From an uncultured Candidatus Saccharibacteria bacterium (GTDB taxonomy: Bacteria > Patescibacteriota > Minisyncoccia > Phycocordibacterales > Phycocordibacteraceae): a stretch of 59,440 nt of DNA. The notes below the pieces were generated by a model. It searched no databases, was not told the DNA's origin, and saw only the letters and a list, made by a program, of their open reading frames with translations. Of the stretch, positions 61 to 59,440 are shown piece by piece (position 1 is the first letter of the stretch; every line of letters starts with the position of its first letter). The position numbers were made by a program, and so were the translations under genes. The DNA lies in assembly GCA_964499455.1 (NCBI GenBank), contig CAZCLC010000001.1, positions 1 to 59,440 on the forward strand, given 5' to 3'.

Positions 61-340
61 ATTGATGTACGAACTTCTGATTTTCGGAAGAAAACGACTT
101 TTCGTCGTTCCGCCTGTCGGCGGACAAGTTTTGGGAGGAACGTTTTGCCCCGCACCGCATTTGCGGGGCGGGGTTTTTGTTTTCGCCAAAATCCGCAGGA
201 TTTTGGCGCGGAGAATTACCACATTATCGGAGCACTAAAGCACTGCTGTTTGTATTCAATCGCTCCGCTCTTGAACAAACAGGGAGCGTAAGATTAAGTT
301 TATGGGTACAGTTCACGTGGCGCGTGAGAGGTTATTTCAA
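61..340. repeat. GC-rich hairpin-dense repeat, copy C (same family as 30842-31020, 55860-56125, 57725-58135, 59020-59440)
   Basis: Much higher GC than surroundings. Hairpins CCGCC/GGCGG 110-123, CCCCGCA/TGCGGGG 148-168 followed by a T-run, and perfect palindrome CGCCAAAATCC-GCA-GGATTTTGGCG 184-208. Block GTCGGCGGACAAGTTTTGGGAGGAACG (116-142) resembles 59094-59120 and the reverse complement of 30961-30986. AGAATTACCACA 212-223 recurs at 59241-59252. Confidence 0.7.
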
Positions 341-402
341 ATTCTTGCGTTTTGACTGGTGGATTAAATTCGGTAGAATAATTGTGAGAGTTTGTTGTGA
401 TT

Positions 403-787
403 TTATATCGTGAGCCAAATTGTATGTTCGGCGTTTGTTGCATAGCAACTTCGTCGCTCGGCTGTTGCGCGAAGCACGCTAAAGGCTGATTTTGAAAGGA
501 TTTGCCACGCTCCGCGTGGCTCAAAAAACAATTCCCGTTCTCGCAAAATTCGGTTCGAGTCAATCTTTTTTAGGAAATCTTTTTTTTCAAAAAGATTTTC
601 CTGCAAAGCGATAATTTCGGCTTGTTTACTGGCTGAAATGAATTTTTTGGCAGGTTCGAGCCAATGATTGCCGTTTTTGTTCAAAATCTAAAATGTCATC
701 TGTACGTATCATCTTGGCTATTGAAATTGGAAATGATTCAATTGGGGTTTCTGAATCATCTACTACTGCATTCAGGTTTTCATACAT
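403..787 (-). pseudogene. Frameshifted C-terminal remnant of a large serine recombinase (decayed integrative element next to tRNA-Asn)
   Basis: The minus-strand ORF 403-684 reads ...GNHWLEPAKKFISASKQAEIIALQENLFEKKDFLKKIDSNRILRERELFFEP..AW... I recall this pattern (WxEP..FI..A...K.FLKKIGSN..L) from the extreme C-terminus of tRNA-targeting large serine recombinases. A short upstream ORF starting at 787 (MYENLNAVVDD...DILDFEQ) is in another frame. No catalytic domain is present. Identification is from memory only. Confidence 0.4.
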
Positions 788-983
788 TGTATATATAGTA
801 TATATTAATTAAATAATTATCCTACTATTATTAAACATCACCTATAATCTTGTTAGTTTATATTTTATATGGAATTATAAAATTGACCAAAACCAATTTT
901 TTGTTATACTGCAATGAAAATCAGCGATGAAGCTCGCTTCTATTGTCATTAATTTGTACTAACAGCTTCTACCAATACCAGTT

Positions 984-1913
984 ATGGTAGAGACGACTTT
1001 AAATAAAAAAAAATTACAACAAATACAACAGTTAGTTGCCGAGCTTGTTTCTCTGCAAAATCCTCAAATTATATCTCGTTTGCTTCCATATGGGAGCACG
1101 GCAATTAAATGTTTACGGGACGCCTTGCTTAATGGTAAGCCGACTTCTGTGTATCAAGCAAGACAACAGTTGGTCTTGGCTCTTTCTGCATTTCATGCAC
1201 GTGATGTGCTTTTGGAATATCTCCGTATGTCACAAAAAATAGAAAATCCAGTGGTAAAATTCGCTGAAGAAGCCGTTCAAAGTATAGCAGCTCGTGAGCT
1301 ATCACAATGGGGAGATAATGAAATATTCAAATTTCTAATTGATTTTTCTATGAATAATACCAGAATAGGTGTGCTTGATGCGCTCGCTAAATTTGGCCGT
1401 ACTGAGGCGATACCAATATTTTTAAAAGCACTTGGGGATGATTATTATCGTTCAGCAGCTGAAAACGGATTACATGAAATAGGAGAAGTTGCCAAAGCGG
1501 ACATTATAAATACAGCGATTACTCCAATTATACATAATGGTATTGAAACTCCACAAAGCATACGTTGTCGTTCATCAGCTCTTTCGCTATTGGTTGACTT
1601 ACATATTAATCGTAATGATTGGAAAGTTCTGCAAAAATTATTTAAAGATTGTAATCCTGAGATTGCTGTTAAAATCGGTTTAATTACCATATCTATTGGA
1701 AATTCGTTAGATAAGACACGTTCTGTAAGGCAGATTATAAAAGTTTATTCATCAGCAACACCATATTCCAGAATGACTATGGAACTTGAAGAATGCCTTA
1801 TACATCTTTCACCTGAAGCAAAGATAATCATTGATCAAACATTAGGAAAACAATTCAATAACAATAAAAGTGTACAAGAACGTTTATCTCGCGTCAGAAA
1901 AAGAATGCCTTAA
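984..1913 (+). CDS. HEAT / PBS-lyase-like repeat protein, function unknown
   Basis: 309-aa ORF with repeated helical A/L-rich units (e.g. RLLPYGSTAIKCLRDALL, VLDALAKFGRTEAIPIFLKALGD). No catalytic motif recognised. Confidence 0.55.
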   Translation: MVETTLNKKKLQQIQQLVAELVSLQNPQIISRLLPYGSTAIKCLRDALLNGKPTSVYQARQQLVLALSAFHARDVLLEYLRMSQKIENPVVKFAEEAVQSIAARELSQWGDNEIFKFLIDFSMNNTRIGVLDALAKFGRTEAIPIFLKALGDDYYRSAAENGLHEIGEVAKADIINTAITPIIHNGIETPQSIRCRSSALSLLVDLHINRNDWKVLQKLFKDCNPEIAVKIGLITISIGNSLDKTRSVRQIIKVYSSATPYSRMTMELEECLIHLSPEAKIIIDQTLGKQFNNNKSVQERLSRVRKRMP

Positions 1914-1924
1914 TAAATAAATAG

Positions 1925-2170
1925 CTACTTTACCAATTTGTTATATATCCATGTGATAACTACTCCAGCGATAAACCCATCCAAAAAAGCCCAAAGACCA
2001 CCGATTACAACACCGATAAAGGATGCACTATATCCTAAATAAAGAGAAGAAAGTGTATTAACGATTGCATTTCCCCAACCGAACATTGCTGTTATACCAA
2101 CGAAAACTACGTATGCCGCCCACAGTATGCCAAGTGCAACACCAAGTGCAACAGGATGATATTTGTTCAT
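1925..2170 (-). CDS. Small hydrophobic membrane protein (81 aa)
   Basis: ORF is almost entirely Gly/Ala/Val/Ile-rich predicted TM segments (GVALGILWAAYVVFVGI, FIGVVIGGLWAFLDGFIAGVVITWIY). It ends convergent with the upstream gene. Confidence 0.55.
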   Translation of the reverse strand: MNKYHPVALGVALGILWAAYVVFVGITAMFGWGNAIVNTLSSLYLGYSASFIGVVIGGLWAFLDGFIAGVVITWIYNKLVK

Positions 2171-2434
2171 AGATATCTATAATAAAATTAAAGCTTATAA
2201 TACGGCATTATTATTATAACGTATTTATATACGAATTAAATCAGTTTTATATATATTTAACGTATAATATAGTATTTTTTATACTCTGGGCATATATATG
2301 AAAGCCTATGATTTTTATCGTTTATGTGGTATTCTAATTATATCAATCAGAGCTGGATCCAAAAGAAGTAGGGATCGAGCTTCTCTCTTCAGCATCCTGA
2401 CTTGATATATTAGACATTTAAATTTCTACCAAAT

Positions 2435-2635
2435 ATGCAAGAAGGAACAGTTGCAAAGAAAACCGATAAAGGTTTCGGCTTCATTAAGCGCGATGGACAG
2501 GAAAAAGATCTTTTTTTCCACTCTAACGAGCTTCAAAATATTTCGTTTGAAGAACTTCAAGAAGGAGATAAAGTCTCATTTGAAGTTGGAGATAGCCCAA
2601 AAGGCCCAAACGCAGTCAGTATTAATAAAATTTAA
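2435..2635 (+). CDS. cspA: Cold-shock protein (CspA family)
   Basis: 66 aa with the RNP1-like KGFGFI and RNP2-like DLFFH motifs. Followed by a strong terminator. Confidence 0.93.
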   Translation: MQEGTVAKKTDKGFGFIKRDGQEKDLFFHSNELQNISFEELQEGDKVSFEVGDSPKGPNAVSINKI

Positions 2636-2643
2636 TGCTGTAA

Positions 2644-2680
2644 TACAAAAAAGCGCCCACAAAGTGGGCGCTTTTTTGTA
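2644..2680. terminator. Bidirectional intrinsic terminator after csp
   Basis: TACAAAAAAGCGCCCAC-AAA-GTGGGCGCTTTTTTGTA: 9-bp GC-rich stem (2652-2660/2664-2672) flanked by an A-run and a T-run. Confidence 0.85.
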
Positions 2681-2867
2681 TTACATCACCTATATGTTAT
2701 TTAAAATTTCAATAATATAAAAACACTTCTTAAATCATTAAAAACATTCATCATTACAAAATTAGTTTTTTGGTATTATAATAGTTATGTATTTATATAA
2801 AACTCTACATCGCAGTTTTTATTTTGTACAATTAAATTTTTAATAAAATTATTACTACAATATTAAT

Positions 2868-4973
2868 ATGTTAAACGGTATTGAGCATCTTATTACAATA
2901 TTCGCTTCATTTGGAGTGTGGGGATATATTATTGTATTTGTTATCGCTCTTATTGAATCGCTTGCTCTTGTTGGTTCATTTATTCCAGGTGCAACTATTG
3001 TTGTTGCTTTCGGTTTCCTTGCAGCACAAGGTTATTTTAATGTGGAAATACTTATTTTTGTTGCAGCTATCGGAGCAATATTTGGTGATAGCATAAGTTA
3101 TTTTATTGGCACAAAAGGTACGCATTTATTCAAGCGTGAGAATCGTATTCTTAATATAAGTCATTTAGAAAAAGGAAAAACATTTTTCGCTACTCATGGA
3201 GGTAAAAGTATTTTATTAGGTAGATTTGTTGGAATATTACGTCCAATTATTCCATTTGTCGCCGGTGCGGCGCGTATGAATATACGCACTTTTCTATTTT
3301 GGAATATCGTAAGTGGAATATTGTGGGCAATTGTACATGTTTTACTTGGGTATTTCTTTGGTGATATATTTTATTCTATTGAAGTATGGACTGGAAGAAT
3401 CGGTGTTTTCCTCGTGCTATTTGCTCTATCAATTTTTGTCGTGTGGTTTGTTATTAAAAGAAGCGCTCCATTCTGGCGTTTAATTACTTCAGTTGTACGC
3501 TCAGTATGGATTACAGTGCGAGATAATCCAGATGTACGAAAATTTGTACATAAACATCCGCTAATTATCAGTTTCGTGCGAGCACGTCTTCATAGAGGTG
3601 TATTTCAAGGATTACCACTTACTGTGATGGTTGCGCTGTTTGTGAGTGTGTTATATATATTTGCTGGACTTGTGCAAGATGTTATCGCCTTAGATCCTAT
3701 CGTAGCAATAGACATACGTCTTGCACATCTTTTATATACATTTCGTGACACTGGACTCGTTCATTTTTTTCTTTGGATAACCGCACTCGGAATGTTTCCG
3801 ATAGTATTGATAGTATTGATAGGAGTTTCTGCCATTTTCTTGTTGTGGCGTAAAAAACAGTACGTTTTTGCGTTGTGGATTACTGTACTTGGGAGTCAAC
3901 TATTTGTTTTTATTGGAAAACTTTTGGTACATAGATTACGTCCTGGAGGACTTATGCCTGTGTATAATGAACCGAGTTTTTCATTTCCAAGTGGTCATGC
4001 TGCAGTTGCTATTGCTCTTTACGGATTTATAACATATATATTATTACGCCATACTCATTCTTTTAAAAGAAAAACAACAATACTATTTGGTAGTACTGTG
4101 ATTATTTTGTTACTTGGATTTAGTCGTCTTTATCTTGGTGTTCATTTTTTGAGTGATGTAATTGGAGGTTATCTTTCAGCGACACTTTGGCTTATTGCTG
4201 GTATTACTTTTGTATTATGGCAAGAGTATGGTACTAATATCGTAACTACAGTTACTGTACGTATAAAAACACTCACAATACTTCTTATTGGAGCTTTATT
4301 ATTATTATATGGAATTTTTGCAGGTTTCTATATTCCACAATTATTACCAACACATACTACAGTACCAACAACTATCGTTAATGTACCAGTTGAAAAAATA
4401 TTTTCTGGTGCAAATGCACTCCCAATCTTTACTACTGGTATTGCGGCTGTAAAACACGTTCCTATCAATTTAATAATTATTGCACCACACCGTAGCGTTC
4501 TTATAAAAGCATTTGAAAAATCAGGATGGTATAAAGCGAGTGAAATGACTGTCAATGTTCTTATGCGTAGTGCAAAAGCAGCACTTTTAAATCAAGAATA
4601 TCTTACCGCGCCAATCAGTCCATTTTTTTGGAATGAACAAGTAAATACTGTAAGTTTTGAAGAACCGACACATACATATACCATTCGACAACGTCACCAT
4701 ATACGTATTTGGAATACGAATTTACGCACACAAAATGGAGAACATATTTATGTGGCGACGGCCAGTCTTGATGTTGGTTTAAAATGGTTTGTTGTACACC
4801 GTATTAGTCCAAATATTGATGCACAACGACAATATGTTGTTGATAGTCTTGAACAAGCTGGTGTTGTAACGCACAAAAAGAATATCGCCATCACAAAACC
4901 GACTATTGGTATAAATATCGCTGGTGATAGATTTTTTACTGATGGGGAAGCGTATGTATTATATTTACGATAG
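2868..4973 (+). CDS. Three-domain membrane fusion: DedA (VTT) family + PAP2 phosphatase + LssY_C-like C-terminal domain
   Basis: The N-terminus has the DedA pattern (FIPGATIVV...GDSISYFIG...GRFVGILRPIIPFVAGAARM). The middle has PAP2 motifs KLLVHRLRP, SFPSGH and SRLYLGVHFLSD. The C-terminus (RHHIRIWNT...VHRISPNID) resembles the LssY C-terminal domain. Confidence 0.85.
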   Translation: MLNGIEHLITIFASFGVWGYIIVFVIALIESLALVGSFIPGATIVVAFGFLAAQGYFNVEILIFVAAIGAIFGDSISYFIGTKGTHLFKRENRILNISHLEKGKTFFATHGGKSILLGRFVGILRPIIPFVAGAARMNIRTFLFWNIVSGILWAIVHVLLGYFFGDIFYSIEVWTGRIGVFLVLFALSIFVVWFVIKRSAPFWRLITSVVRSVWITVRDNPDVRKFVHKHPLIISFVRARLHRGVFQGLPLTVMVALFVSVLYIFAGLVQDVIALDPIVAIDIRLAHLLYTFRDTGLVHFFLWITALGMFPIVLIVLIGVSAIFLLWRKKQYVFALWITVLGSQLFVFIGKLLVHRLRPGGLMPVYNEPSFSFPSGHAAVAIALYGFITYILLRHTHSFKRKTTILFGSTVIILLLGFSRLYLGVHFLSDVIGGYLSATLWLIAGITFVLWQEYGTNIVTTVTVRIKTLTILLIGALLLLYGIFAGFYIPQLLPTHTTVPTTIVNVPVEKIFSGANALPIFTTGIAAVKHVPINLIIIAPHRSVLIKAFEKSGWYKASEMTVNVLMRSAKAALLNQEYLTAPISPFFWNEQVNTVSFEEPTHTYTIRQRHHIRIWNTNLRTQNGEHIYVATASLDVGLKWFVVHRISPNIDAQRQYVVDSLEQAGVVTHKKNIAITKPTIGINIAGDRFFTDGEAYVLYLR

Positions 4974-4977
4974 CTGA

Positions 4978-5469: not shown

Positions 5470-5530
5470 AATTAATTTAATTGTATCATGCTACTTATAT
5501 TATTTTTTAAATATATAGTAATCATTTAAT

Positions 5531-6307: not shown

Positions 6308-6350
6308 CATATCAAGAAAGTAAAGTTAATAAAATCGTTCATTGACGCTA

Positions 6351-6845: not shown

Positions 6846-6883
6846 TTACATAAAATACCGGCATATGCCGGTATTTTATGTAA
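6846..6883. terminator. Bidirectional terminator between convergent genes
   Basis: Perfect palindrome TTACATAAAATACCGGCATATGCCGGTATTTTATGTAA. Confidence 0.8.
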
Positions 6884-6901
6884 ATTACATATAGAACAGT
6901 A

Positions 6902-6943
6902 AGTTTATTCTCCGCTCGGAAAAGTTTATTCTCCGCTCGGAAA
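6902..6943. repeat. Perfect 21-bp tandem duplication covering a stop codon
   Basis: AGTTTATTCTCCGCTCGGAAA occurs at 6902-6922 and again at 6923-6943. The second copy encodes the last codons (FPSGE-stop) of the minus-strand gene ending at 6926. Confidence 0.95.
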
Positions 6944-7540
6944 TATGTATGTTGAAGGTATTGTAGATGTACTTGAGGACATATCAAATACTACTGCAAT
7001 TTCTTGATGCTCTTTTAATATAAGCGTACGTGGATTATTAGTTACTTTTTTACCATTATTGTAGACAGCAAGTGTTGATGATGCTGTATCACAATAACTA
7101 CCAATGCAGTTTTGTGTGAATCGTACACCCCACACATCGAAAAACTCTCCGAGTGTAAAATCACGCATAGTAGGAGATTCAACATGTATAACACCACTAT
7201 TGTCATGGGTGTGTATTGGAGACATAAATCTTTCAATTTGGTTTATACCAATGTTTGCCGGAACACTAACAGAGTGTCCATTAATAATAATATCTATATG
7301 CTCGTGAATATGTAATGCGGATTTTCCTCCAGAAAGTGCTTGTAGTCCAATATCATCTAAACGTGTACGCAAATGTGAAATTTCAGGTTGCCATGGTGCA
7401 ACAGTTTTTTGTATTCCTGGAAGTGTGTTTGAATTAATAGTTAATGGAACTGAAGAAGCATTAGGGAATATATGATTCTATCCTAATAAAATTGCGACAA
7501 CAATAATAGCACCTGCCCATATAAATATTTTTTTATTCAT
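6926..7540 (-). pseudogene. Secreted His-motif protein gene interrupted by an in-frame TAG after the signal anchor
   Basis: ATG at 7540 encodes MNKKIFIWAGAIIVVAILLG, then TAG (7478-7480). The same frame continues NHIFPNASS... into ORF 6926-7372 (LHIHEHIDIIINGHSV...HTHDNSGVIHVE). No ATG/GTG lies between the TAG and the TTG at 7372. Confidence 0.6.
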
Positions 7541-30769: not shown

Positions 30770-30841
30770 GGCCCTATCGTCTAATGGCTAGGACATCACC
30801 CTCTCACGGTGGTAATCGGGGTTCGACTCCCCGTAGGGTCA
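30770..30841 (+). tRNA. tRNA-Glu (anticodon CTC)
   Basis: Full cloverleaf by hand: acceptor GGCCCTA/TAGGGTC, D-stem GTCT/GGAC, anticodon stem TCACC/GGTGG with loop CTCTCAC, 4-nt variable loop, T-arm CGGGG-TTCGACT-CCCCG, discriminator A. Confidence 0.92.
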
Positions 30842-31020
30842 CAAATTGAAACTTCTTGCGAAGTTAGCACAAAAGAGTGGCGCGCCGCAGGCGCGCCACA
30901 TCGCACTCGCTCCACTCGTGCGACCGACCGACAAAATAATTTCCTCTCAATTTTTGTCCGGCTCCTCCCCAAACCTCTCCGCCGAAAGGCGAAAAGAAGA
31001 AAGGAAGTTTTTTGTTTGCT
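30842..31020. repeat. GC-rich hairpin-dense repeat, copy A (inverted relative to copies C and B)
   Basis: Starts immediately after tRNA-Glu. Has a 10-bp perfect GC hairpin GTGGCGCGCC-GCA-GGCGCGCCAC at 30877-30899. The reverse complement of 30939-30986 matches 59094-59142 (TTCGG.GGAG.GGT.TGGGGAGGAGCCG.ACAAAAA.TTGA.AGGAAAT). Confidence 0.75.
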
Positions 31021-31108
31021 CACACGAGCTTATATTCCAGTCTAATAAATTAGAAAAATCAGCTACTTCTTAATGGCTATACAAAAATAAATTTGATACA
31101 ATACGGCT

Positions 31109-31555
31109 ATGAAGCAGAAAACGATCCTCGGAATCATCGGAGTAGTAGTGATCGGCGCACTCATTGTTATCGTTTATTTCTTCTCACAAAAGACCTATCT
31201 AATCGATCAGCATGCGGCTGCCATTCTCGCGTGTTATACAGGAGACTCAAGCGGCACCACAGACCAACCGATACCGAATAATTCTGTCCAATATGTGAAA
31301 GAAACGTCGCGCCTCTTCATCAACATGCCAAAGGATTTGTATCCCCGGGATCTCCAATATTCCTGGACTACTGTTGCGGGCAACGCGTCGGCTGGATCGG
31401 TCGGCGGCGGTTTTGGCGAAGCTGAAGGCGCTGCGCCTGGCTGCTGGTCGTCGTATATGGACTTCGAGGGGAGCGGTGAAGTCGATCTGCGAGTGAAGAG
31501 CGTCGTCGAGGGCGCGCCAGATTACTTCGTGCGCTTCATTGTTTCTTCGGTGTGA
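31109..31555 (+). CDS. Membrane-anchored hypothetical protein with strikingly high GC
   Basis: 148 aa with an N-terminal TM anchor (ILGIIGVVVIGALIVIVYFF). The 3' half is visibly around 55-60% GC in a ~33% GC genome. The antisense ORF 31247-31567 was rejected. Confidence 0.6.
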   Translation: MKQKTILGIIGVVVIGALIVIVYFFSQKTYLIDQHAAAILACYTGDSSGTTDQPIPNNSVQYVKETSRLFINMPKDLYPRDLQYSWTTVAGNASAGSVGGGFGEAEGAAPGCWSSYMDFEGSGEVDLRVKSVVEGAPDYFVRFIVSSV

Positions 31556-31786
31556 TGATTTCCGCATATAAACTGAAATATTTGACTTAGGAATAAACTA
31601 AATCGCGCCGAAGGCACGGAAGAACAGCGTGCCTTCTATGCATTATAAGTTAATCAATTGTTTTACAATTAGTAATAAGTTCGGGCAAGGTTTGTGATTT
31701 AATTACAAATCTAAACTTTCTATCATAGTATGAACATACTGTATAATATATGTTTATATAGTATTAATTAATAATTAAAATTAATT

Positions 31787-32371
31787 ATGTCTGCCAAAGT
31801 AATAATATTTGATTTTTTTGGTGTAATTTGTTCCGAAGTAGCTCCTTTTTGGTTTCAAAAATACATCTCTAAAAAAGAAGTGCAGAAATATAAAAAATTC
31901 TATTTTGAGCCAGCTGATTCTGTAGAAATTTCAGATGATAAATTATTAGAAAATCTAAGTAGATTTTCTGATGAGACCGCAAAAAAAGTAAAAGGAGAAT
32001 TATATAATTTAGTAAAAATAAATTATGATGTTGTTAAAATTATAAAAAACCTTAAACAAAATCATAAAATTGGCATATGTTCTAATAGTAATAGTAAATT
32101 TTTATATACAATTCTACAAGCCAATGAATTAATCAATTTATTTGATTCTATTATTATTTCAAGTGAATATGGAGTTACAAAACCAGATGTTAGAATTTAT
32201 AAATTTGCTTTAGAACAACTTTCTGCCAGTCCGCAGGAGACAATATTTATTGATGATAATCCTAAAAATATACAAGGTGCAGAACAAGTTGGTATAAAAA
32301 GTATTCTCTTTACTAATCCGAAAGAATTAGTTATTGAGTTGTTAAAATCTACTGACATAATAACAAATTAG
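31787..32371 (+). CDS. HAD-superfamily hydrolase
   Basis: Motif I region VIIFDFFGVI (second Asp replaced), motif II CSNS and motif IV IFIDDNPKNIQGA. Very low GC. Confidence 0.7.
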   Translation: MSAKVIIFDFFGVICSEVAPFWFQKYISKKEVQKYKKFYFEPADSVEISDDKLLENLSRFSDETAKKVKGELYNLVKINYDVVKIIKNLKQNHKIGICSNSNSKFLYTILQANELINLFDSIIISSEYGVTKPDVRIYKFALEQLSASPQETIFIDDNPKNIQGAEQVGIKSILFTNPKELVIELLKSTDIITN

Positions 32372-32432
32372 ATTGCAGTGTAATGTAAAATTAAATAGTT
32401 ATATACTGTATTATATAAGTATCATATAAAAT

Positions 32433-32788
32433 ATGAATATATTTGAAAAAATTATAAAAGATAGAGAAATTAGAAAAATAAGTCCTAGATTTAAAGCTGA
32501 AATGTATCGTGAAAAAAAGAATTTAAAGATATTCTTGAGAAACTTGGTAAAAAAACTAATGATACTGGATACGATATTTTGTTAAAAATTCCAATGAAAA
32601 TTTTTTCTAATAACTTGAAAACCGTATATGATGAAAAATATGGGAACAAAGCTTATTTGAAGGATTCTTTTAAATTATTTTTTGGCAAAAACGGAGCTTT
32701 ACATAATACAACAAAAATTATAGCTATTGTTACTCATCTTTCTGGGAAAATTGTTAAAATAGGTTTAAGAAAATTATTTGCAATTTAA
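32433..32788 (+). CDS. Small hypothetical protein that needs a -1 frameshift (or a 1-nt correction) at an A7 run to be read as one ~118-aa product
   Basis: Frame A (ATG 32433) runs to TAA 32583-32585. The -1 frame opens just upstream of the A7 run (32512-32518) and continues sensibly (EFKDILEKLGKKTNDTGYDILLKIPMKIF...) to 32788. The zero-frame heptamer A_AAA_AAG is at 32513-32519. Confidence 0.45.
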
Positions 32789-32790
32789 CT

Positions 32791-33066
32791 ATGGTAGTAG
32801 AAAAAGAAATACAAGAAATAATAGATAATTTTATTGAGGAGCTTGAGGGAAAGCAAAATGCTATTATTGATTTTAATAGAAAAGTTCAAGAAATAATTTA
32901 TAAATCAAAACAAGCATTTAATTCAGAAACTGATAAATTGAATGAACATTTTCTTAAGGCAGAAATTTCTGAACAAGAATATCGTCAGAGATTTTTAAAA
33001 TTTAAAGAACAAATTATTAAAGAAACTAAGCAAAAATTAGATATTTTAATACAAAGTTTAAAATAA
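32791..33066 (+). CDS. Coiled-coil hypothetical protein (91 aa)
   Basis: Charged heptad-like sequence. Starts 3 nt after the previous stop. No recognisable domain. Confidence 0.5.
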   Translation: MVVEKEIQEIIDNFIEELEGKQNAIIDFNRKVQEIIYKSKQAFNSETDKLNEHFLKAEISEQEYRQRFLKFKEQIIKETKQKLDILIQSLK

Positions 33067-33361
33067 TAATCTATATAAATTCTGAAAAACAAAGAAAGAT
33101 TAATTTGAGTTATTAAATGTTTTGATAAAGCATATAATTATTTTGTATATTAGTTAATTAAAGTACAAACATTAAATATAATAAATTCTACAAATAATTA
33201 AATTCAGTGAAAACTCCACTGCTTGATATAGTTGACAAAATATATAAAATGTAGTAGCTTATACATCATAAGTTACATCTCATGATTTCCATGTATATGT
33301 TTTGGAATTTAAGAGATCTTAGTCGGCTTATCTCTTAATCTTAAAGGCTAAAACAAAATAT

Positions 33362-34570
33362 ATGTTTAGAAGAAAAACGGGTCAAAACAGACGTTTTGAC
33401 AGTCATCATCGTGTAAGTGTAAATAAATCTCATTCTTATTCCAGTAAACGTTCTAGTTCCAGTAAACGTCAATTCAATGACGTGTCTAAGTTTGTTAATA
33501 GAATTGTTTCTAATGAAAATATAAAGCCTTATAAAACAGTAAATGATTTTGCTGATTTTGAAATTGATAATCGTTTAAAAAAGAATATTTCAGATGCTGG
33601 ATATATTCATCCAACACCTATTCAAGACCAAGCAATTCCACATATTTTAAAAGGTAGTGATATTGTCGGAATTGCTGATACTGGTACAGGTAAGACAGCG
33701 GCTTTTCTTGTGCCGCTTCTAAATAATGTGTTAAAAGATAAAAAACAGAAGGTTTTAATTGTTGTTCCAACACGAGATTTGGCAGTTCAAATTAATCAAG
33801 TTTTTATGAAACTTGCATCTAATATGCATATTTTCTCTGTTTGTACTGTTGGAGGCATTCCTGTGTTCCGTCAAATTAATGAAATGCGACGTGGTTATAA
33901 TTTTATTATAGGAACTCCTGGACGTATTAAAGATCTTATTGAACGTCGTCGTTTGCAATTAGATGATTTTCAAACCATTGTTCTAGATGAATCTGACCGT
34001 ATGCTTGATATGGGTTTTATTAATGATATGCGTTTCTTAATATCAGCTATGCCAGACAAACATCAAACTCTTTTCTTTTCTGCGACATTATCCAGAGATG
34101 TTAAATTAGTTATTAACGATTTCTTAAATAATCCGATTAATATTTTTGTTAAAACCCGTGATACAGCTCGTGGTGTAGATCAAGATGTTATTCATGCAAA
34201 AAAAGGTGCAAAACTTGATATATTAAACAAAATGTTAGTTCAACCTGAATTCAAGAAAGTGTTAATTTTTGGACGGACTAAAATTGGTGTTGAGCATTTA
34301 TATGAATCTCTTTCAAGTCATGGTATCAAAGCAAGATCAATTCATGGAGATAAAAATTATAGTCAGCGACAAAATGCTCTAAAAATGTTTAAAAATAGTT
34401 CAATAAATGTCTTAGTTGCAACTGATGTAGCAGCACGTGGAATTGATATACCAAATGTTAGTCATGTAATTAATTATGAACTTCCAGCTACATATGAGGA
34501 TTATATCCATCGTATTGGCCGTACAGGTCGCGCAGGTAAGACGGGGAAGGCTCTAACTTTCGTTGAATAA
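33362..34570 (+). CDS. DEAD-box ATP-dependent RNA helicase (motif II reads DESD)
   Basis: Q-motif PTPIQ, motif I ADTGTGKTAAF, Ia PTRDLA, II VLDESD (33986-33997), III SAT, VI HRIGRTGRAG. Basic Ser/Arg-rich N-terminal extension. Confidence 0.9.
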   Translation: MFRRKTGQNRRFDSHHRVSVNKSHSYSSKRSSSSKRQFNDVSKFVNRIVSNENIKPYKTVNDFADFEIDNRLKKNISDAGYIHPTPIQDQAIPHILKGSDIVGIADTGTGKTAAFLVPLLNNVLKDKKQKVLIVVPTRDLAVQINQVFMKLASNMHIFSVCTVGGIPVFRQINEMRRGYNFIIGTPGRIKDLIERRRLQLDDFQTIVLDESDRMLDMGFINDMRFLISAMPDKHQTLFFSATLSRDVKLVINDFLNNPINIFVKTRDTARGVDQDVIHAKKGAKLDILNKMLVQPEFKKVLIFGRTKIGVEHLYESLSSHGIKARSIHGDKNYSQRQNALKMFKNSSINVLVATDVAARGIDIPNVSHVINYELPATYEDYIHRIGRTGRAGKTGKALTFVE

Positions 34571-53736: not shown

Positions 53737-53962
53737 ATTAATTGTATATTATACCATATTGATTATTGATAAGTATAATATTTAAGTTTGAATACCTTTT
53801 TATACTATATTGATGTTTTTATCATTAAATTATAAAAAATATAGCATTTATTATATTAAAAAATTTATTCATCAATTAAAAACTGCTTATTTGGATTTTC
53901 TAAAGTTTTATATATTTTCTCATATAATAATATAGAATGGGTATTTATTATTTTGCTATCTA

Positions 53963-54718
53963 TTATAGAACACCGTACTTAGGAATATCTACTTGTGTAC
54001 TGATAATGCGAATATCACCATTTGAGTTATGTTGTATTGCATTTACAGAACCTTGTTTAATAAGTTCAAGCAGTGCCAAAAATGAGATGATAACTGTGAT
54101 TTTTTGTTTATGTTTAAATCCAGAAAATTCATTAAAAGAAATATTTGATGCTTCGTGTACCCGCGTTGCTAATCGATTCACTGTTTCTGCAAGAGAAATA
54201 GTTTTTTGTAAAGTAGTTTTAGGTGTTTGTTCATTTTGTTTTTTTTGGTTTATAAGAAGTACAGAGAGTGTTTTAGAGATTATAGATAGAGTACAATCAT
54301 TTCCAGGTGAAAATATCGGCTCTAGTATAGGAGTTTCTCGCGCTAAAAGTGGTGTACGCATAAAGTTTTTATGAAGTATATATGCTGCCTCTTTAATATA
54401 TTTATACTGTTGTAATCTATATTTTAATTCTTTTACGTCATTTTCTTCCTCTTCTGAGAGTGTAAAATCTGGAATAAGTGATCTCGATTTTATTAAAAGA
54501 AGTGTAGCTGCAATACTAATAAAACTTGTAGTTTCATCTAATGGAAATGCTTTTTGCGCTCGTACATACATAACAAAATCGTCAGTGATTGATGCAAGGA
54601 AAAGTTCATTTACAAGTAATTTGTGTTTTTCAATCAGCTCAAGTACCAATTCAAACGGACCTTCGTACACTGGTGTATGAATAATAAAATTAGTTGATGC
54701 TGAATTTTCTTGGTTCAT
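53963..54718 (-). CDS. scpA: Segregation and condensation protein A
   Basis: ...YEGPFELVLELIEKHKL.V.EL.LA.ITDDF..Y and C-terminal ...II.SFLALLEL.K. Confidence 0.9.
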   Translation of the reverse strand: MNQENSASTNFIIHTPVYEGPFELVLELIEKHKLLVNELFLASITDDFVMYVRAQKAFPLDETTSFISIAATLLLIKSRSLIPDFTLSEEEENDVKELKYRLQQYKYIKEAAYILHKNFMRTPLLARETPILEPIFSPGNDCTLSIISKTLSVLLINQKKQNEQTPKTTLQKTISLAETVNRLATRVHEASNISFNEFSGFKHKQKITVIISFLALLELIKQGSVNAIQHNSNGDIRIISTQVDIPKYGVL

Positions 54719-54757
54719 AAATTAAAAACATAGAGAAAATAACTTCATATTTTTAAT

Positions 54758-55720
54758 TTATGAATACATACCAATTGTACGTTTGACATATTCCATTTTT
54801 TTATCAGTTATAGCAATTGCCTCTCGCTTCCCTTTTGCAAGCACATCATCAACAATATCAGTATCTTTTTTTAAAGTTTCATATCGTGTACGAATGGTGG
54901 CAAAATATGTATTAAGGTCTTCTAAAAGTATTTCTTTGAGTATCTTATATTTTCCTTTATTTTTTTCATAAATTAGAGAAAGTTCGTTCTCATTTCGCAC
55001 TAATTTATGAATCGCATAAACATTTTCTGGCCTATCACCAGCTGAATCTGTAACAATGCTCATAACACGTTTGGTAAGCTCGTTTTGAGAAGCAAACAGA
55101 GGAATTACATTATCATAACTTTTACTCATTTTTTTACCGTCTGTACCTGAGACCACTGCAACGTCTGGAGTAATATATGCTTCAGGTAATACAAATATAT
55201 CATCTTGAAAAATATGATTAAATTTTCGTGCTGTATCACGAGCAATTTCAATATGCTGTTTCTGGTCTTGTCCAACTGGCACGATAGTCGTATCGTAAAG
55301 TAAAATATCTGCTGCCATTAACATCGGATAGTTAAAGACACCAACAGAGATTTCTTTGTTTTTTTCTTGTGCATCTTTAAATGCGTGCGCACGCATTAGG
55401 TACGGTATAGTTGTAATAGTATCGAAAATCCATGCAAGTTCAGTATGTGCTGGTACATCTGATTGTTTAAAAATAACTACTTCTTCTGGATCAAGTCCGA
55501 TTGCAAGATAGCTTATAACAAGTTCACGTGTACGTACACGCATTTCTTCAGCGTCTTGTACAGTATTAAGTGCGTGATAATCTGCAACCATAATAAAGCA
55601 ACGATACTTTCCACTTTTAAAAAGTTCCATTTGTTGACGCATTGCACCAAAATAATTTCCAATGTGTAACTCACCGGTCGGTTTTATACCGGAAAAGAGT
55701 ATTGATTTTGAATCAGTCAT
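54758..55720 (-). CDS. trpS: Tryptophanyl-tRNA synthetase
   Basis: SGIKPTGELHIGNYFGA (HIGH), VPVGQDQKQH and KMSKS. Confidence 0.95.
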   Translation of the reverse strand: MTDSKSILFSGIKPTGELHIGNYFGAMRQQMELFKSGKYRCFIMVADYHALNTVQDAEEMRVRTRELVISYLAIGLDPEEVVIFKQSDVPAHTELAWIFDTITTIPYLMRAHAFKDAQEKNKEISVGVFNYPMLMAADILLYDTTIVPVGQDQKQHIEIARDTARKFNHIFQDDIFVLPEAYITPDVAVVSGTDGKKMSKSYDNVIPLFASQNELTKRVMSIVTDSAGDRPENVYAIHKLVRNENELSLIYEKNKGKYKILKEILLEDLNTYFATIRTRYETLKKDTDIVDDVLAKGKREAIAITDKKMEYVKRTIGMYS

Positions 55721-55859
55721 AAATATTACAATACCATATTATTATGTACTACTCATCAATATAATTCAAAACTTAATATGCACGCATTTAAATAATTTAC
55801 TGTTGATGCCTATATCATATATTATGTTTATTACATGTGTGCGCAAGCGTTGCTTCATA

Positions 55860-56125
55860 ATGTTTAGTATATGCGATGTTTTGCGGAACGGAGTGGAGCA
55901 AAATATGGGAGAGCGAAGTGCAACGAGTGAACCGCATATACTGTGTTAGGCGAGCCGAACGGAGCGATAGCGGAGTGAGAGTGCAACGTGCCTTTAGTGT
56001 ACATTTTTTTATCTTTTTCTTCCATAATTGTTTCCCGCGTAGCTTTTATATTAAATGCAAAACAAAATTTTTCTGTTTTGGGCGAAGGGCAGAGGGGATT
56101 AAGGGGTGAATGCCCGTAGCCCAAA
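55860..56125. repeat. GC-rich repeat, copy D: decayed CTAAA/TTTAG hairpin unit plus the left arm of the cassette-bracketing inverted repeat (56001-56104)
   Basis: GGAGCGATAGCGGAGTGAG at 55961-55979 recurs at 57770-57784 and 58085-58103. 56001-56104 aligns by eye to the reverse complement of 57792-57888. Confidence 0.7.
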
Positions 56126-56130
56126 ACTCA

Positions 56131-56805
56131 TTATTCTTCCCAGTCTCTTTTTGTTATTTGATCTTTTGCGCCGTCAGGCAACTCCTCATAAAATCCTTCA
56201 ATTTCTTTTGGCTCCGAAATCATTTTTTCTGCAATAAAGTTTATTAATTCGAAAAGTTTCAAAACTAATTCCGGTTTTTCCTCAATATTAATTTCACCCG
56301 GATGTACAGCATTATTTCCAGTGATGCGTAGAATATCTAAAGATTTTTGAATTTGAGAATTTAATCCTTGTTTAACAAGGTTTCCAATATCCATATTTAT
56401 ATTTTCTCCTTTTTCTCCGAGCTGCTTACAAAGTTTTTGTAATGCAAGTCTTAGTAGGGCTGCTGATGATCTTACGGAATCGTTAAAAATAATTGCGGCT
56501 TCCAAATAATCTTTTTTAATATCTTCAGATAAATCATCATTTGGCAAATCAACAATCATTTTCTTTGGATAAACAATTTCACCATTTAACCAAATTATTT
56601 TCTGACCACAATGTTCGCACTTAGAAATAGTCCAATCTTTACTTAGTGTTTCGTTGAAATCAGATGTTCCTGTTATTGAATTAGATCCACTCCAGGCATG
56701 TTGCGCAATAATATGTGCCCAAAATTGTTTTGCATAAACGCCACAATGCGGACAATGAAATTGTCCTGTTGCATGTTCTGGTGGATAGTACTTTTCTTTT
56801 TTCAT
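56131..56805 (-). CDS. Zn-ribbon + DUF4145 protein (second gene of the Mrr cassette)
   Basis: The N-terminus has four Cys (CPHC ... CEHC). The C-terminal helical domain carries the DUF4145 pattern (SSAALLRLALQKLCKQLG...LDILRITGNNAVHPG). Confidence 0.8.
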   Translation of the reverse strand: MKKEKYYPPEHATGQFHCPHCGVYAKQFWAHIIAQHAWSGSNSITGTSDFNETLSKDWTISKCEHCGQKIIWLNGEIVYPKKMIVDLPNDDLSEDIKKDYLEAAIIFNDSVRSSAALLRLALQKLCKQLGEKGENINMDIGNLVKQGLNSQIQKSLDILRITGNNAVHPGEINIEEKPELVLKLFELINFIAEKMISEPKEIEGFYEELPDGAKDQITKRDWEE

Positions 56806-56817
56806 AATTGTAATAAA

Positions 56818-57708
56818 TTAGTTTTCTTCAAAAAAATCTTCATCAACTTCTTTTACTTCATATATATTGCGGACTTGCACACCAACACCATATTGATACA
56901 TTAAATCTACAAGTTTGTTACCATCAATAAGAATTATCGTATGATGTGCTTCATATGCCTTTTTAATAGCTGAATCATCAAAGTTTGAAGTAGTAACAAA
57001 AACTCCTTTGTTTGTATCTCCACTCATTGCCCCAATAAAATTACGAATTTCTTTTTCGCGAACTTTATTTTCGTTATAACGTTTTGCTTGAATATAAATT
57101 TTTTCAAGTCCAAGCTGATCTTCATTTATAACTCCATCAATACCACCATCACCTGATTTTGAAGTTTCAATAAAATCACCATATCCCATTTTTTTGAGTA
57201 AGATTAAAATGACTTTTTCAAAATAGTACGGATCAATATTTCTCAATTTTTCTAAAAGGTCACTTTTAACTTGAGAATCAATCGCTGAAAAACCAGAATC
57301 AATCAAATCTTGTGGAGATGCATTTTCAACATTAATTTCATCATTTTTAGATTCCTTTTCTGCCTTTTTAGCTTCACGATGAGCCAAAAAAACAGAATCA
57401 TTCTTTAACTCTTGTAATGTCAATGTTCCTTTTTGCAAAGCAGTCTTGCCTTTTTCTGTAATTTGTACCATTCCTCTTTCTGGGTAATCTAAAAATTTTC
57501 CTTGCTTCAAATAAGATTTACCCCACCCTATACGATCAAGTAATACATTGGCACCGGTGGTTGTTTTTTTATTTAATAGTTCTTCAGGTAAATCTGAATA
57601 GTATTTATTACGTACGCGCTTACGTAATTCATTGTAATGTAGTATTTCTCCATTACTTAATACTTCTAGAATTGGTATAAATGTTTCGTGATATTTAGGT
57701 AATTCCAT
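56818..57708 (-). CDS. mrr: Mrr-type restriction endonuclease (Mrr_N winged helix + Mrr_cat PD-(D/E)xK)
   Basis: N-terminus MELPKYHETFIPILEVLSNGE..HYNELRKRV (Mrr_N). C-terminus FEKVILILLKKMGYG...SGDGGIDGVI...IYIQAKRY...I.NF.GAM......GVFVTTS.F (Mrr catalytic core). Confidence 0.88.
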   Translation of the reverse strand: MELPKYHETFIPILEVLSNGEILHYNELRKRVRNKYYSDLPEELLNKKTTTGANVLLDRIGWGKSYLKQGKFLDYPERGMVQITEKGKTALQKGTLTLQELKNDSVFLAHREAKKAEKESKNDEINVENASPQDLIDSGFSAIDSQVKSDLLEKLRNIDPYYFEKVILILLKKMGYGDFIETSKSGDGGIDGVINEDQLGLEKIYIQAKRYNENKVREKEIRNFIGAMSGDTNKGVFVTTSNFDDSAIKKAYEAHHTIILIDGNKLVDLMYQYGVGVQVRNIYEVKEVDEDFFEEN

Positions 57709-57724
57709 AGTTGTATTAATTATT

Positions 57725-58135
57725 TTGTGAAAATTATATTCCTTTCTCCCTTATAAATAAATCGTTTTCGGAGCGATAGCGGAGAAAACAACCTTATATC
57801 CCCTCTAAAAAGAAAAAAATTGTTTTGCTTCCTTATTCTTAAAAGCGAAGCGGGAAACCTCCTTATTATCAAAAAAGATAAAAAATGTATGCCGCCTAAT
57901 GCGCCGCGGATGATGCGACCGTTTGCGAGTATAATTATTGTAGCATAGCTACAATAATTTATGAGCAAATGTCGCATATCCCGCTGTTGTCCGAAGTCCG
58001 CGAAGCGAAGCGAAGCGAGCGGGATGAGGACGGCAGAGGGATTCATCCGCGGCGCATTGTCCTAAATCCGAGAGTGAGACGAATGGAGCGACAGCGGAGT
58101 GAGCTGAGCGAGCGGATTTAGGACAACTGGTTTTT
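57725..58135. repeat. GC-rich repeat, copy E: right arm of the inverted repeat (57792-57888) plus a multi-stem element (57898-58135)
   Basis: A 16-bp perfect closing stem AATGCGCCGCGGATGA (57898-57913) / TCATCCGCGGCGCATT (58043-58058) encloses a 12-bp hairpin (57933-57959) and an ATCCCGC/GCGGGAT hairpin carrying (CGAAG)x3. Then comes a 14-bp hairpin 58057-58070/58113-58126 and T5 (58131-58135). Confidence 0.75.
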
Positions 58136-58203
58136 ATCCATACTTTGTGATTGAATTATAGCAAGAAGTTTTATGTTATACAAACTTTTATTATTCTTGA
58201 ACT

Positions 58204-59016
58204 ATGGGCAATATTTTAGACAAAACCGAACGAGTATTACGATTACGCAACTACTCTCCCAAAACTCGTAAAGCATACTTGTTCTATATAAGACAGTATA
58301 TCAGTTTTTCTAAAAAAGCTGGAATCAAAAATAAACAAAAAGTAGTTGAGGATTTTTTACTTGATAAACATAACCGCAAACAATCTCCGCAAACAATCAA
58401 TCTTGCACTTAATGCTGTAAAGTTTTTGTATAGAGAAGTTTTGAAAAATTCGCAAAAAATTGATTTAAAATTTGCAAAAAGAAGTAAGAAGTTGCCAGTT
58501 GTACTTTCACATCGTGAGATTGAGAAAATTATCCATGCAACTGATAATGCAAAATATAAACTTATGATTTCACTTGGTTATGCTTGTGGTCTTAGAGTTA
58601 GCGAGGTTATTAGTCTGCATGTAGCTGATTTGGATATTGATGAGCTTGTTGTTCATATCAAAAGAGCAAAAGGTAAGAAAGACAGAATCAGTGTTCTACC
58701 TGGAAAGCTGCAGGATGATTTACGGAATATAATTGCTGATAGAAATGCGAAAGATTATATTTTTGATTCTAATCGTGGCGGAAAACTTACAACAACATCT
58801 TTGCAAAAAATGTTTCGCAAGAGTTTAGCAAAAACAACAATCAAAAAGCCAGTAACTTTCCACTCCCTGCGACATTCTTTTGCAACACACTTGTTAGAAA
58901 ACGGAACGGATGTGCGTTATGTACAGGAATTGCTTGGACACTCTAATATTCGCACTACGCAAATCTATACACAAGTTACAAACCCGAAGTTAAAGAATAT
59001 TAAGAGTCCACTGTAA
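58204..59016 (+). CDS. Tyrosine recombinase (XerC/D-like with SAM-like N-domain; lacks the IntI-specific insertion)
   Basis: N-terminus LRNYSPKTRKAYLFYIRQYISF. Catalytic residues fit R (GLRVSE), K (KGKKDR), H-x-x-R (HSLRHSFATH), H (LLGHS) and Y (TQIYTQV). Only 270 aa. Confidence 0.9.
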   Translation: MGNILDKTERVLRLRNYSPKTRKAYLFYIRQYISFSKKAGIKNKQKVVEDFLLDKHNRKQSPQTINLALNAVKFLYREVLKNSQKIDLKFAKRSKKLPVVLSHREIEKIIHATDNAKYKLMISLGYACGLRVSEVISLHVADLDIDELVVHIKRAKGKKDRISVLPGKLQDDLRNIIADRNAKDYIFDSNRGGKLTTTSLQKMFRKSLAKTTIKKPVTFHSLRHSFATHLLENGTDVRYVQELLGHSNIRTTQIYTQVTNPKLKNIKSPL

Positions 59017-59019
59017 CTA

Positions 59020-59440
59020 TTATAGCGAACCCGACCGAGGGTCTGCCCCAACGAAGTGAGGGTGCAAAATCATTTCCTTACCTCTCTTTCTTTTTCGGTG
59101 GAGGGGTCTGGGGAGGAGCCGAACAAAAAATTGAAAGGAAATGGTTTTGGTCGGGTGGCTCGCCGAGTGAAGCGGGGCGAGAGTGACGCGGTTGTATTGC
59201 GAGAGTTACCACTAAACTCTCCTATCGGAGAGTTTAGTGTAGAATTACCACACAGGATCTCGCCGTGGAGCGTGCGCCCGCAGGCGCACGCATTTAGACA
59301 GCACGCACTCCGTGCGTTCCTATTTGTTTAATGTAGTTGATTTTGAAAATAGGTTCTATTCTGGTGCCTTTATTTTACCAAATCCGAACCTATTTTCAAA
59401 ATAAATACTAACTCACGCGCGGAGCGCGTGGAAACTCCAA
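59020..59440. repeat. GC-rich hairpin-dense repeat, copy B (collinear with copy C); runs to the window edge
   Basis: Stems: CTCGCC/GGCGAG 59159-59181, 13-bp perfect 59210-59222/59227-59239, 9-bp GC 59270-59291, 59303-59317, 17-bp perfect 59340-59356/59386-59402, 59414-59430. Block 59094-59142 is shared with copies A and C. Confidence 0.75.

Follow-up and report, generated by a model that had tools for sequence, protein, structure and literature searches.

GC-rich intergenic blocks of a Saccharibacteria contig as probable relics of two apparently undescribed recombinase system variants

Bacteria of the Candidate Phyla Radiation (CPR) have tiny genomes, in which few mobile elements have been recognised. 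Here, we analysed a 59,440-nucleotide (nt) stretch of DNA, hereafter the window, from an uncultured Candidatus Saccharibacteria bacterium (GCA_964499455.1, contig CAZCLC010000001.1, positions 1 to 59,440); it is contig C1 of a 567-kb, 32-contig assembly with a GC content of 34%. Two recombinase systems, each of a known kind but apparently in an undescribed variant, have left mostly relics in the window, notably in five GC-rich non-coding blocks, which we call A to E. Our analysis makes it very likely that blocks A, B and C, together with an arm at the contig end (arm R), are mostly decayed arms of an element that carries a large serine recombinase (LSR), and somewhat more likely than not that D and E served an integron-like platform, built around a tyrosine recombinase, as its sites. 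An initial annotation, made from the letters of the window, had assigned all five blocks to one family of integrative elements that target tRNA genes, with one possibly active copy around the tyrosine recombinase and several decayed copies.

Results

The five GC-rich blocks

The blocks do stand out from their surroundings as described, with GC contents of 0.44-0.53 as compared with 0.20-0.34 in seven other intergenic stretches of the window. Their supposed wealth of hairpins is less uniform. Expressed as a folding z-score against mononucleotide shuffles (control stretches, -0.9 to -3.8), excess folding is clear for the right part of E (57893-58135, z -9.5), for B (z -7.8) and for A (z -5.1), marginal for C (z -3.1) and absent from D as a whole (z -0.9) and from E 57709-57892 (z -1.0), both of which are unexceptional. 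The tRNA contexts reported for two of the blocks are real. A tRNA-Glu(CUC) gene (30770-30842, + strand; ARAGORN and Rfam) precedes A, and the 3′ part of a tRNA-Asn(GUU) gene, cut at its 5′ side by the contig start (1-54, + strand; Rfam tRNA model positions 19-71, anticodon GTT read from the sequence), precedes C. Rfam scans using both gathering and E-value thresholds returned no family besides tRNA, the rest being noise.

Similarity among the blocks is significant, within two separate groups. The segment seen by eye in A and B corresponds to an inverted match of 137 nt (76% identity, E 2e-20; 63 nt at 78% in another comparison), and both blocks have a conserved hairpin that we call the core. 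A and C match over 49 nt at 80% (E 2e-8); the shorter version noted in C is therefore a degenerate core, at 91-139. The sequence AGAATTACCACA is indeed present exactly at 212-223 in C and at 59241-59252 in B, and this sharing is meaningful because the reverse complement of an arm extension found in two metagenome contigs (L062/L063) matches C over 21 nt and 16 nt, exactly in both cases (213-233 and 284-299). Blocks D and E are linked by the 15-mer GGAGCGAYAGCGGAG, found once in D and twice in E as had been noticed, by an inverted repeat of 84 nt (75%, E 3e-10; 56000-56078 versus 57807-57889) and by a direct repeat of 28 nt (89%, E 4e-5). No significant similarity joins D/E to A/B/C, at a threshold at which 30 shuffle trials gave 0-4 chance matches each. 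As judged from this all-versus-all comparison, the five blocks fall into two families, A/B/C and D/E, and not into one.

Two further features had been cited in favour of a common origin. GC hairpins do exist at 30877-30899 in A and 59270-59291 in B, but homology between the two was not demonstrated. Hairpins of the CTAAA...TTTAG type occur in B and E but were not found in C, and such a common 5-mer is no evidence of kinship between blocks. We also considered a high-copy repeat family of this genome and rejected it, as few links emerged when the assembly was searched by BLAST with the blocks and with every GC-rich segment. The core family is low-copy, with four core matches in the whole 567-kb assembly.

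The serine recombinase element in related genomes

We compared the blocks with sequences of congeners (genomes of the same genus) and, more widely, with related records, which are metagenome-assembled genomes (MAGs) of Patescibacteria/CPR. The core of B (59065-59151) is kept at 74-92% identity in other genera and families of the same order, where it occurs as inverted pairs 1.9-4.6 kb apart. These pairs are parts of arms of 245-272 nt, 97-100% identical to each other, that surround cargo genes. Within the order, a sequence model of the core (R1) has matches in 39 of 151 genomes and in 38 of 132 genera, often at contig ends and with 1-6 copies per genome. The layout that recurs in these relatives starts at a tRNA 3′ end, where an a arm, the LSR gene and an a′ arm are followed by a b arm, cargo genes and a b′ arm, beyond which lies the flank. 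The a arms measure about 110-150 nt and the b arms, which contain the core, about 200-255 nt; the cargo spans 1.7-6.4 kb, and the LSR gene is transcribed toward the tRNA. The LSR genes of the relatives are intact and encode the domain set Resolvase, Recombinase and Zn_ribbon_recom.

This layout is widespread. A search with an LSR alignment against one genome per prokaryote species gave at least 588 matching stretches, and the best 80 of these, which we examined, come nearly all from Patescibacteria-labelled MAGs. A convergent tRNA gene lies at the LSR 3′ end in 55 of these 80 loci (flipped orientation in 4), an inverted a-pair surrounds the LSR gene in 50, and an adjacent b-pair is present in 19. 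Arms of the A/B/C type thus go with an LSR in relatives, at odds with the proposal that the tyrosine recombinase is the integrase of this element. An inversion switch of the ON/OFF or Hin/Gin type was rejected, since the arms are 100-400 nt long, not below 40 bp, and mirror-symmetric, so that a flip would change nothing locally, and since the LSR gene is oriented toward the tRNA by 55 to 4.

Junction sequences, tabulated for 7 and 13 loci, show how the parts adjoin. There is an overlap of 4-6 nt between the a arm and the tRNA end, and one of 3-7 nt between a′ and b. On its outer side, b′ resembles a tRNA 3′ half (GGTTCGAGC...CACCA) and is followed by the flank, and at the a′-b junction the same pseudo-tRNA end is joined to an a-start in inverted orientation. 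Since the outer end of b and b′ mimics the tRNA 3′ half, the a′-b junction represents a complete inverted copy of the element's attachment site (attP). The short junction core matches the end of the respective target tRNA (CACCA, CTCCA or CAGC). With only 3-7 nt in common at the junctions of the 20 loci, it fits the very short crossover core expected of serine integrases, as does the junction at 59352-59390 of the window.

These data bear directly on the idea that the blocks are, all five of them, the ends of tyrosine-integrase islands of a single family that integrate at tRNA genes. A tyrosine recombinase gene does lie between E and B, and its homologs are often found near tRNA 3′ ends, as in two loci, L164 and L165, in which a tRNA-Leu follows the recombinase gene after about 190 nt. 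However, D/E are unrelated in sequence to A/B/C, the arms of the A/B/C type accompany serine recombinases in relatives, with no such tyrosine recombinase in 33 cargo segments, and the junction cores follow serine-integrase logic, with a short common core and a pseudo-tRNA half-site. Moreover, the duplication of tRNA 3′ ends expected by the initial annotation was not found: no direct repeat of the tRNA-Glu, tRNA-Asn or tRNA-Tyr 3′ end exists anywhere in the assembly, allowing up to 4 mismatches in 24-26 nt. The tyrosine recombinase is, in addition, not adjacent to tRNA-Glu or tRNA-Asn, and no distal direct repeat of the kind that bounds such islands is present. We therefore regard a single tyrosine-integrase family as very unlikely. 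A, B, C and arm R are, in our opinion, very likely arms of the LSR element, which agrees with the earlier suggestion that the blocks are att-proximal parts of integrative elements tied to tRNA 3′ ends, given the arm homology and the junctions.

The cargo of 33 cassettes is diverse and includes DNA methylases, restriction enzymes, copper ATPase/HMA proteins, M23 peptidases and NUDIX proteins. Class I aminoacyl-tRNA synthetases were also observed between inverted arms, three of the Trp/Tyr type and one of the Ile/Leu/Met/Val type. A tyrosine recombinase was considered as a recurrent cargo of LSR loci and discarded, as none was present among the fetched loci. One locus of the set departs from the usual layout: in genome G025 (L016), the 131 nt after tRNA-Glu (1627-1757) are repeated directly after the b′ arm (6857-6987), and a 23-nt copy of the tRNA 3′ end and a 22-nt palindrome stand in place of the LSR module. 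This arrangement suggests that the target underwent a long duplication and that the LSR module collapsed.

The paired arms are much more alike within a genome than between genomes. Between G007 and MGR_bin410, the orthologous elements at tRNA-Glu have an overall identity of 78%; the two b arms of a genome are the same (100%) in either case, as compared with 87.6% identity between the genomes, and about 15 a-arm substitutions are common to both arms of one genome. This pattern of substitutions shows homogenisation of the paired arms over time (concerted evolution), and not just to their recent origin.

The core has attracted our attention as a structure in its own right. On either strand it folds into a long hairpin (z -1.2 to -3.4) with A- and T-runs at its flanks, and its outer stem shows compensatory changes in 8 of 16 pairs, with 89% of cells paired as compared with 39-65% in slid controls. 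Some hairpins also score as terminator-like. One could thus imagine that the blocks are independent structured RNAs or terminators, alike only since GC hairpins stand out in an AT-rich genome. This is highly improbable, as no Rfam family besides tRNA was detected, as the homology to arms is extended and covers dozens of genomes, and as the arms are mirrored pairs, so that no strand is preferred, whose positions follow the grammar of the element. Stems involved in rRNA processing were likewise dismissed, based on Rfam and on the open reading frame (ORF) content of the segments between inverted pairs. The core also has its own terminal inverted repeat of 16-18 nt and occurs in both orientations within arms, reminiscent of an autonomous repeat that scatters by itself, such as miniature inverted-repeat transposable elements (MITEs) or repetitive extragenic palindromes (REPs). 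Such autonomy is extremely improbable: all 15 'solitary' cores examined lie inside a full-length b arm, genomes contain just 1-6 copies, and no target duplications were seen. In 4 of 10 arms, the G-rich loop of the core is inverted with respect to the remainder of the arm. As a part of the LSR element, the core may act as an insulator or terminator, or as an accessory site.

Probable relics at tRNA-Glu, tRNA-Asn and the contig end

At tRNA-Glu, the target of complete LSR elements in G007, MGR_bin410 and G079, the window retains pieces of an a-type and of a b-type arm without what lay between. The tRNA gene and the first ~55 nt after it align to the tRNA-Glu a arm of G079 (129 nt, 73%, E 3e-19). 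The left part of block A (30843-30880, + strand) is, from this alignment, the start of an a-type arm, with a deletion scar at about 30854-30880. The right part (30881-31026, + strand) is the inner half of a b-type arm (hidden Markov model (HMM) of the b arm, positions 119-262, E 8e-15; R1, 82.6 bits), including the core hairpin at 30931-31019 with its C-rich strand up. Positions 30881-31154 match the b arm and cargo start of the G007 and MGR_bin410 elements at 75-79% identity over 253-267 nt. Compared with G007, about 1.9 kb is absent from block A, comprising a, the LSR gene, a′ and the outer half of b. The start of the cargo is still present (31027-31555, + strand), with a conserved upstream region and a 148-amino acid (aa) ORF at 31109-31555; the homology to G007 and MGR_bin410 extends through its start codon. 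This ORF has no Pfam, NCBIfam or PADLOC match. It has a GC content of 57% (0.57 at 31300-31569) and is followed by 1.5 kb at 22-24% GC (32000-33500). Both the ORF and the AT-rich stretch are compositionally atypical for the genome and may be the remains of cargo.

Block A is not conserved at orthologous positions in all relatives: among 21 murF-tRNA-Glu loci of the same genus, only those of G007 (complete element) and of the present genome (relic) are occupied. In loci L042-L061, the tRNA-Glu(CUC) gene lies 40-3,050 nt after murF, in + orientation in nine congeners and in - orientation in seven. It is followed in congeners by 1-8.7 kb of variable DNA, and several contigs end right after the tRNA. 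The region downstream of murF is a recombination hot spot. We also considered that the dcw cluster might have been inverted recently between A and D, and rejected this idea: no mraY, ftsW, scpAB or TyrRS gene was found within 12 kb after murF-tRNA-Glu in 20 congener loci, and the split of the cluster is therefore old.

At tRNA-Asn, block C (61-345) is a heap of arm relics. It contains, besides the degenerate core, a palindrome (184-208), the motif GAATTACCAC followed by A (213-223) and an inverted homolog of arm R (205-345) that is interrupted by a 50-nt hairpin (234-283). The palindrome, a AAAATCCGCAGGATTTT hairpin, recurs in b arms of G039, G071 and G103. Next comes the inner part of an a-type arm (346-528) with a conserved hairpin, GCCACGCTCCGCGTGGC, at 495-528, which recurs at 90-97% identity in relatives. 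This hairpin is present as inverted pairs in G017 and G024, with about 1.4 kb between the two copies, which is the spacing of a-pairs around an LSR gene. The serine-recombinase remnant reported after C is real but small. It is a C-terminal relic of the LSR gene (523-669, - strand), recovered by tblastn with the LSR of G024 (residues 464-512, 33% identity, E 7e-5), and it has no Pfam match. A second LSR relic of the same assembly is located on contig C4 (34461-34865), where tRNA-Leu is followed by an a arm, the LSR relic and a core; the end of contig C17 carries a tRNA-Ile followed by an a arm.

Block B lies at the other end of the window. Its left part (59017-59212, - strand) is the inner half of a b-type arm (HMM positions 125-242, E 8.5e-10; R1, 72.8 bits) that ends in the pseudo-tRNA-end motif ...GTTACCAC. 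Its core (59065-59151) has the G-rich strand up, and the half-arm abuts the stop codon of the tyrosine recombinase gene. It is followed by a near-perfect 30-nt palindrome (self-inverted at 93%) with the GAATTACCAC junction motif (59210-59252), which may be the scar of a collapsed module, by analogy with the 22-nt palindrome that replaces the LSR module in G025. Further on, a diverged a′-type arm (59253-59366, - strand; HMM positions 31-108, E 0.004) ends in GGTTCTATTCTGGTG, and its outer 21 nt are the reverse complement of the arm start beside tRNA-Tyr on contig C19. At 59352-59390, GGTTCTATTCTGGTG is joined to CCTTTATTTTACCAAATCCGAACC in a junction of the internal-attP type, which agrees in layout and sequence with those between a′ and b in G133 and in 13 further loci.

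The start of arm R (59367-59440, + strand; b-arm HMM positions 3-84, matched by 59356-59432, E 8e-10) forms the end of the window and is found in identical form beside tRNA-Tyr on C19. The last 55 nt of the window equal, as reverse complement, positions 1-55 of C19, which is where both contigs end. The metagenome contigs L062 and L063 lengthen both copies of arm R by the same 46 nt and then stop; arm R therefore measures at least 110 nt and exists in two copies or more. Between the window end and tRNA-Tyr, beyond the assembly, there is probably a copy whose arms are still identical. A module of about 1.5 kb between identical arms would assemble as a short contig, of a kind that tends to be dropped in binning. 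Thus, most copies are decayed, as originally proposed, but the only candidate for an intact one is this unassembled copy beside tRNA-Tyr and not a copy around the tyrosine recombinase. Other pairs of contig ends were discarded as arms, since C9/C13 and C18/C20 share AT-rich or collagen-like coding repeats. The end of C18 and the start of C20 run into the same 55-mer in a collagen-like (GGx/ACT-rich) coding repeat, an assembly break unrelated to arms.

The tyrosine recombinase and the defence cassette

Blocks D and E flank a defence cassette, next to which lies the tyrosine recombinase gene. The left part of D (55860-55999) contains two hairpins, one of them with GAACGGAGCGATAGCGGAGTGAG, which is the D copy of the 28-nt direct repeat (58076-58103 in E). 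This left part, a candidate attC-like site, is matched in none of 40 relatives, whereas contig C4 carries two partial copies. The cassette itself is bracketed by a decayed inverted repeat, with its left arm at 56000-56104 and its right arm at 57792-57889 in the left part of E. It contains, both on the - strand, a homolog of PD-T7-4 (56131-56805; Zn-ribbon and DUF4145; PADLOC PD-T7-4 E 3e-86, Pfam DUF4145) and an Mrr-type IV restriction enzyme (56818-57708; PADLOC mREase_IV E 1e-53, Pfam Mrr_cat and Mrr_N). The right part of E (57893-58135), a multi-stem structured region upstream of the recombinase gene, is, by analogy with homologous loci, a candidate docking (attI-like) site. A Trp/Tyr-type synthetase gene (54758-55720) adjoins block D, and a second one adjoins tRNA-Tyr on C19/L062.

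Just left of the right arm lies the hairpin TTTTCGGAGCGATAGCGGAGAAAA (57765-57788), a motif that is conserved at 85% in G037, which belongs to another family. The hairpin, TTTTC-GGAGCGATAGCGGA-GAAAA, is followed by CCTTAT.TCCCC.TCTA.AAAAGAAAA just upstream of gene starts in the window, in G037 (L010) and on the own contig C4 (41331-41383). Related hairpins, TTTTGC-GGAACG.AGTGGA-GCAAAA, are found in D and twice on C4 (37950 and 38918). The TTTTC-GGAGCGATAGCGGA-GAAAA hairpin may be a promoter or 5′-untranslated region motif, or a motif of a cassette site.

The tyrosine recombinase (270 aa; 58204-59016, + strand; Pfam SAM_4 and Phage_integrase) is an accessory, IntI/XerA-like enzyme. Its best match in the PDB is IntI4 (2A3V, E 2e-46), with IntI residues ~211-237, the IntI-specific segment, left unmatched. 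Its TIGR02249 score of 226.7 bits is below the cutoff of 265. The additional domain specific to IntI was thus not found in this 270-aa protein, either in the 2A3V alignment or with TIGR02249. No ortholog exists in 30 congeners, where just a Xer-type paralog is kept. In one congener (G006, contig C24, 100-345; L144), a broken copy was observed whose last 36 aa are 86% identical to the recombinase of the window; the gene therefore also decays in place. More widely, the enzyme has over 7,500 homologs, and more than 100 clusters at 80-88% identity come from different CPR classes, mostly on short contigs. These homologs are found in unrelated gene contexts, and a multi-stem structured region lies upstream of each one examined, similar to the right part of E in shape but not in sequence.

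Among the homologous loci are L164 and L165, from two near-identical genomes (GCA_003056195.1 and GCA_003056205.1), which share an identical 270-aa recombinase and right flank, their sole difference being a 2.6-kb insert in L165. This insert (DUF218, SDH_protease and a small ORF) sits exactly at the outer edge of the structured region, and an edge repeat of about 26 nt flanks it. The layout of the window is alike, with the cassette reaching to 57889, the structured region beginning at 57893 and a part of E-right recurring in D-left (the 28-nt direct repeat). Based on this insert and the shared layout, we are somewhat inclined to read D and E, by analogy, as sites of an integron-like cassette platform. 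Inspection of the D/E hairpins by eye revealed no GTTRRRY boxes.

The recombinase stop is immediately followed by a core-type hairpin or b arm in the window, in L161 (full b arm) and partly in L155, and the recombinase family is very widespread. It could thus be argued that all blocks, including A, B and C, belong to the platform as folded attC/attI-type sites, and that the arms of the LSR element are borrowed sequences. We consider this unlikely, as LSR-type junctions and LSR relics are found where A, C and arm R adjoin tRNA ends, and as complete b-pairs accompany an LSR in loci devoid of a tyrosine recombinase. If A, B and C are instead arms of the LSR element, the platform may ride as its cargo, or the arm may share a module with the platform.

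Discussion

Our results are consistent with the following scenario. The LSR element would insert at the last bases of a tRNA gene, immediately after ...CACCA, and its paired, GC-rich arms (~100-400 nt, with several hairpins) would be kept identical by gene conversion. In this order, the b arms end in a conserved hairpin core of ~95 nt, the loop of which would have been flipped repeatedly. Deletions would then have removed the LSR gene at tRNA-Glu (block A) and most of it at tRNA-Asn (block C), and the hairpin-dense look of the blocks would be due to the arm stumps and small palindromic scars that were left behind. The IntI-like tyrosine recombinase, divergent from the Mrr and PD-T7-4 cassette, would have received this cassette at the outer edge of its upstream structured region. 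The platform abuts the inner end of arm B and is thus possibly cargo of an LSR element. It is tempting, though speculative, to go further and suggest a two-tier system of gene capture in CPR bacteria, in which an LSR element with access to almost any tRNA 3′ end, a spare inverted attP and gene-converted arms carries an integron-like platform that collects defence cassettes although its recombinase is devoid of the 'essential' IntI domain, the core between arm and cargo being functional (insulator or accessory site) and not just a scar. A single-stranded 'dumbbell' that rebuilds a double-stranded attP was also envisaged, and rejected on logic, as serine exchange would leave hairpin-capped chromosome ends.

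Several observations weigh against assigning the blocks to an LSR element and a platform. No intact LSR gene is present in the window or in the bin, where the relics at 523-669 and C4:34461-34865 are the only ones, and the relic of the window is short and weak (49 aa, E 7e-5). No partner arm of block B is present in the window; block A lies at a distance of 28 kb and matches it at just 76%. At the contig end, the layout is ambiguous, since the copies of arm R could form a direct or an inverted repeat. The core also flanks the tyrosine recombinase gene of other lineages on its 3′ side, so that it could be owned by either the LSR element or the platform. Finally, D and E share no sequence with the canonical arms, and their suggested role in a platform comes from analogy with homologous loci and not from conserved sites.

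Serine integrases such as those of phiC31, Bxb1, A118/LI and SPbeta (SprA), CcrA/B of SCCmec and XisF exhibit the same set of Resolvase, Recombinase and Zn_ribbon_recom domains as the LSRs of CPR bacteria, whose best NCBIfam matches are CcrB and XisF, all with scores far below the family cutoffs. The CPR element resembles them in its site-specific insertion, in the few shared crossover bases and in an attP half-site that mimics the target. Unlike them, it targets the 3′ ends of many different tRNAs, keeps a second, inverted attP inside and has modules bracketed by concertedly evolving arms of 100-400 nt; no recombination directionality factor was identified.

The platform recalls integrons (IntI, attI and attC; IntI4/VchIntIA of Vibrio cholerae, PDB 2A3V). 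The recombinase of the window is closest to IntI4 and divergent from the cassette, folded sites lie at the flanks of the cassette, and in the homologous locus L165 a cassette is inserted at a fixed edge beside the recombinase. In contrast to integrons, however, the platform of the window lacks the IntI-specific insertion (~211-237) and recognisable R′′/L′′/L′/R′ boxes, and its cassette is bracketed by inverted repeats of ~100 nt.

In the 2-micron circle of yeast (FLP/FRT) and in plastid inverted repeats, flip-flop goes together with concerted evolution, and small hairpin-loop inversions occur in plastid spacers. Similarly, the CPR element has two unique segments between identical inverted repeats, maintained arm identity and flipping loops. 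It differs in being integrated, in having no replication genes and in carrying a serine and not a tyrosine recombinase, and a function of inversion was not demonstrated.

Our literature search retrieved no description of an LSR element or of an integron-like platform in CPR, the nearest being units of restriction-modification (R-M) genes flanked by imperfect inverted repeats of 26-65 bp, with 8-bp target duplications (Furuta, Abe & Kobayashi, 2010; PMC2853133). As in those units, defence or R-M genes lie here between inverted repeats and are tied to tRNA genes or integrases, R-M genes being frequent cargo. In contrast to the CPR element, neither concerted evolution nor pseudo-tRNA ends nor a serine recombinase were reported for the units (Furuta, Abe & Kobayashi, 2010; PMC2853133).

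Both recombinases are compact, which makes them candidate tools for recombination in the laboratory. The IntI-like recombinase also raises the question of which features are needed for cassette capture of the integron type, and the internal inverted attP and concertedly evolving arms, unusual for serine integrases, could bear on the control of directionality without a known helper protein. For the present genome, our work suggests that the GC-rich intergenic blocks are the fossil and living arms of at least two recombinase systems, and that they mark variable loci and assembly breaks. Both systems would move R-M, other defence and metal-resistance genes, and even genes for aminoacyl-tRNA synthetases.

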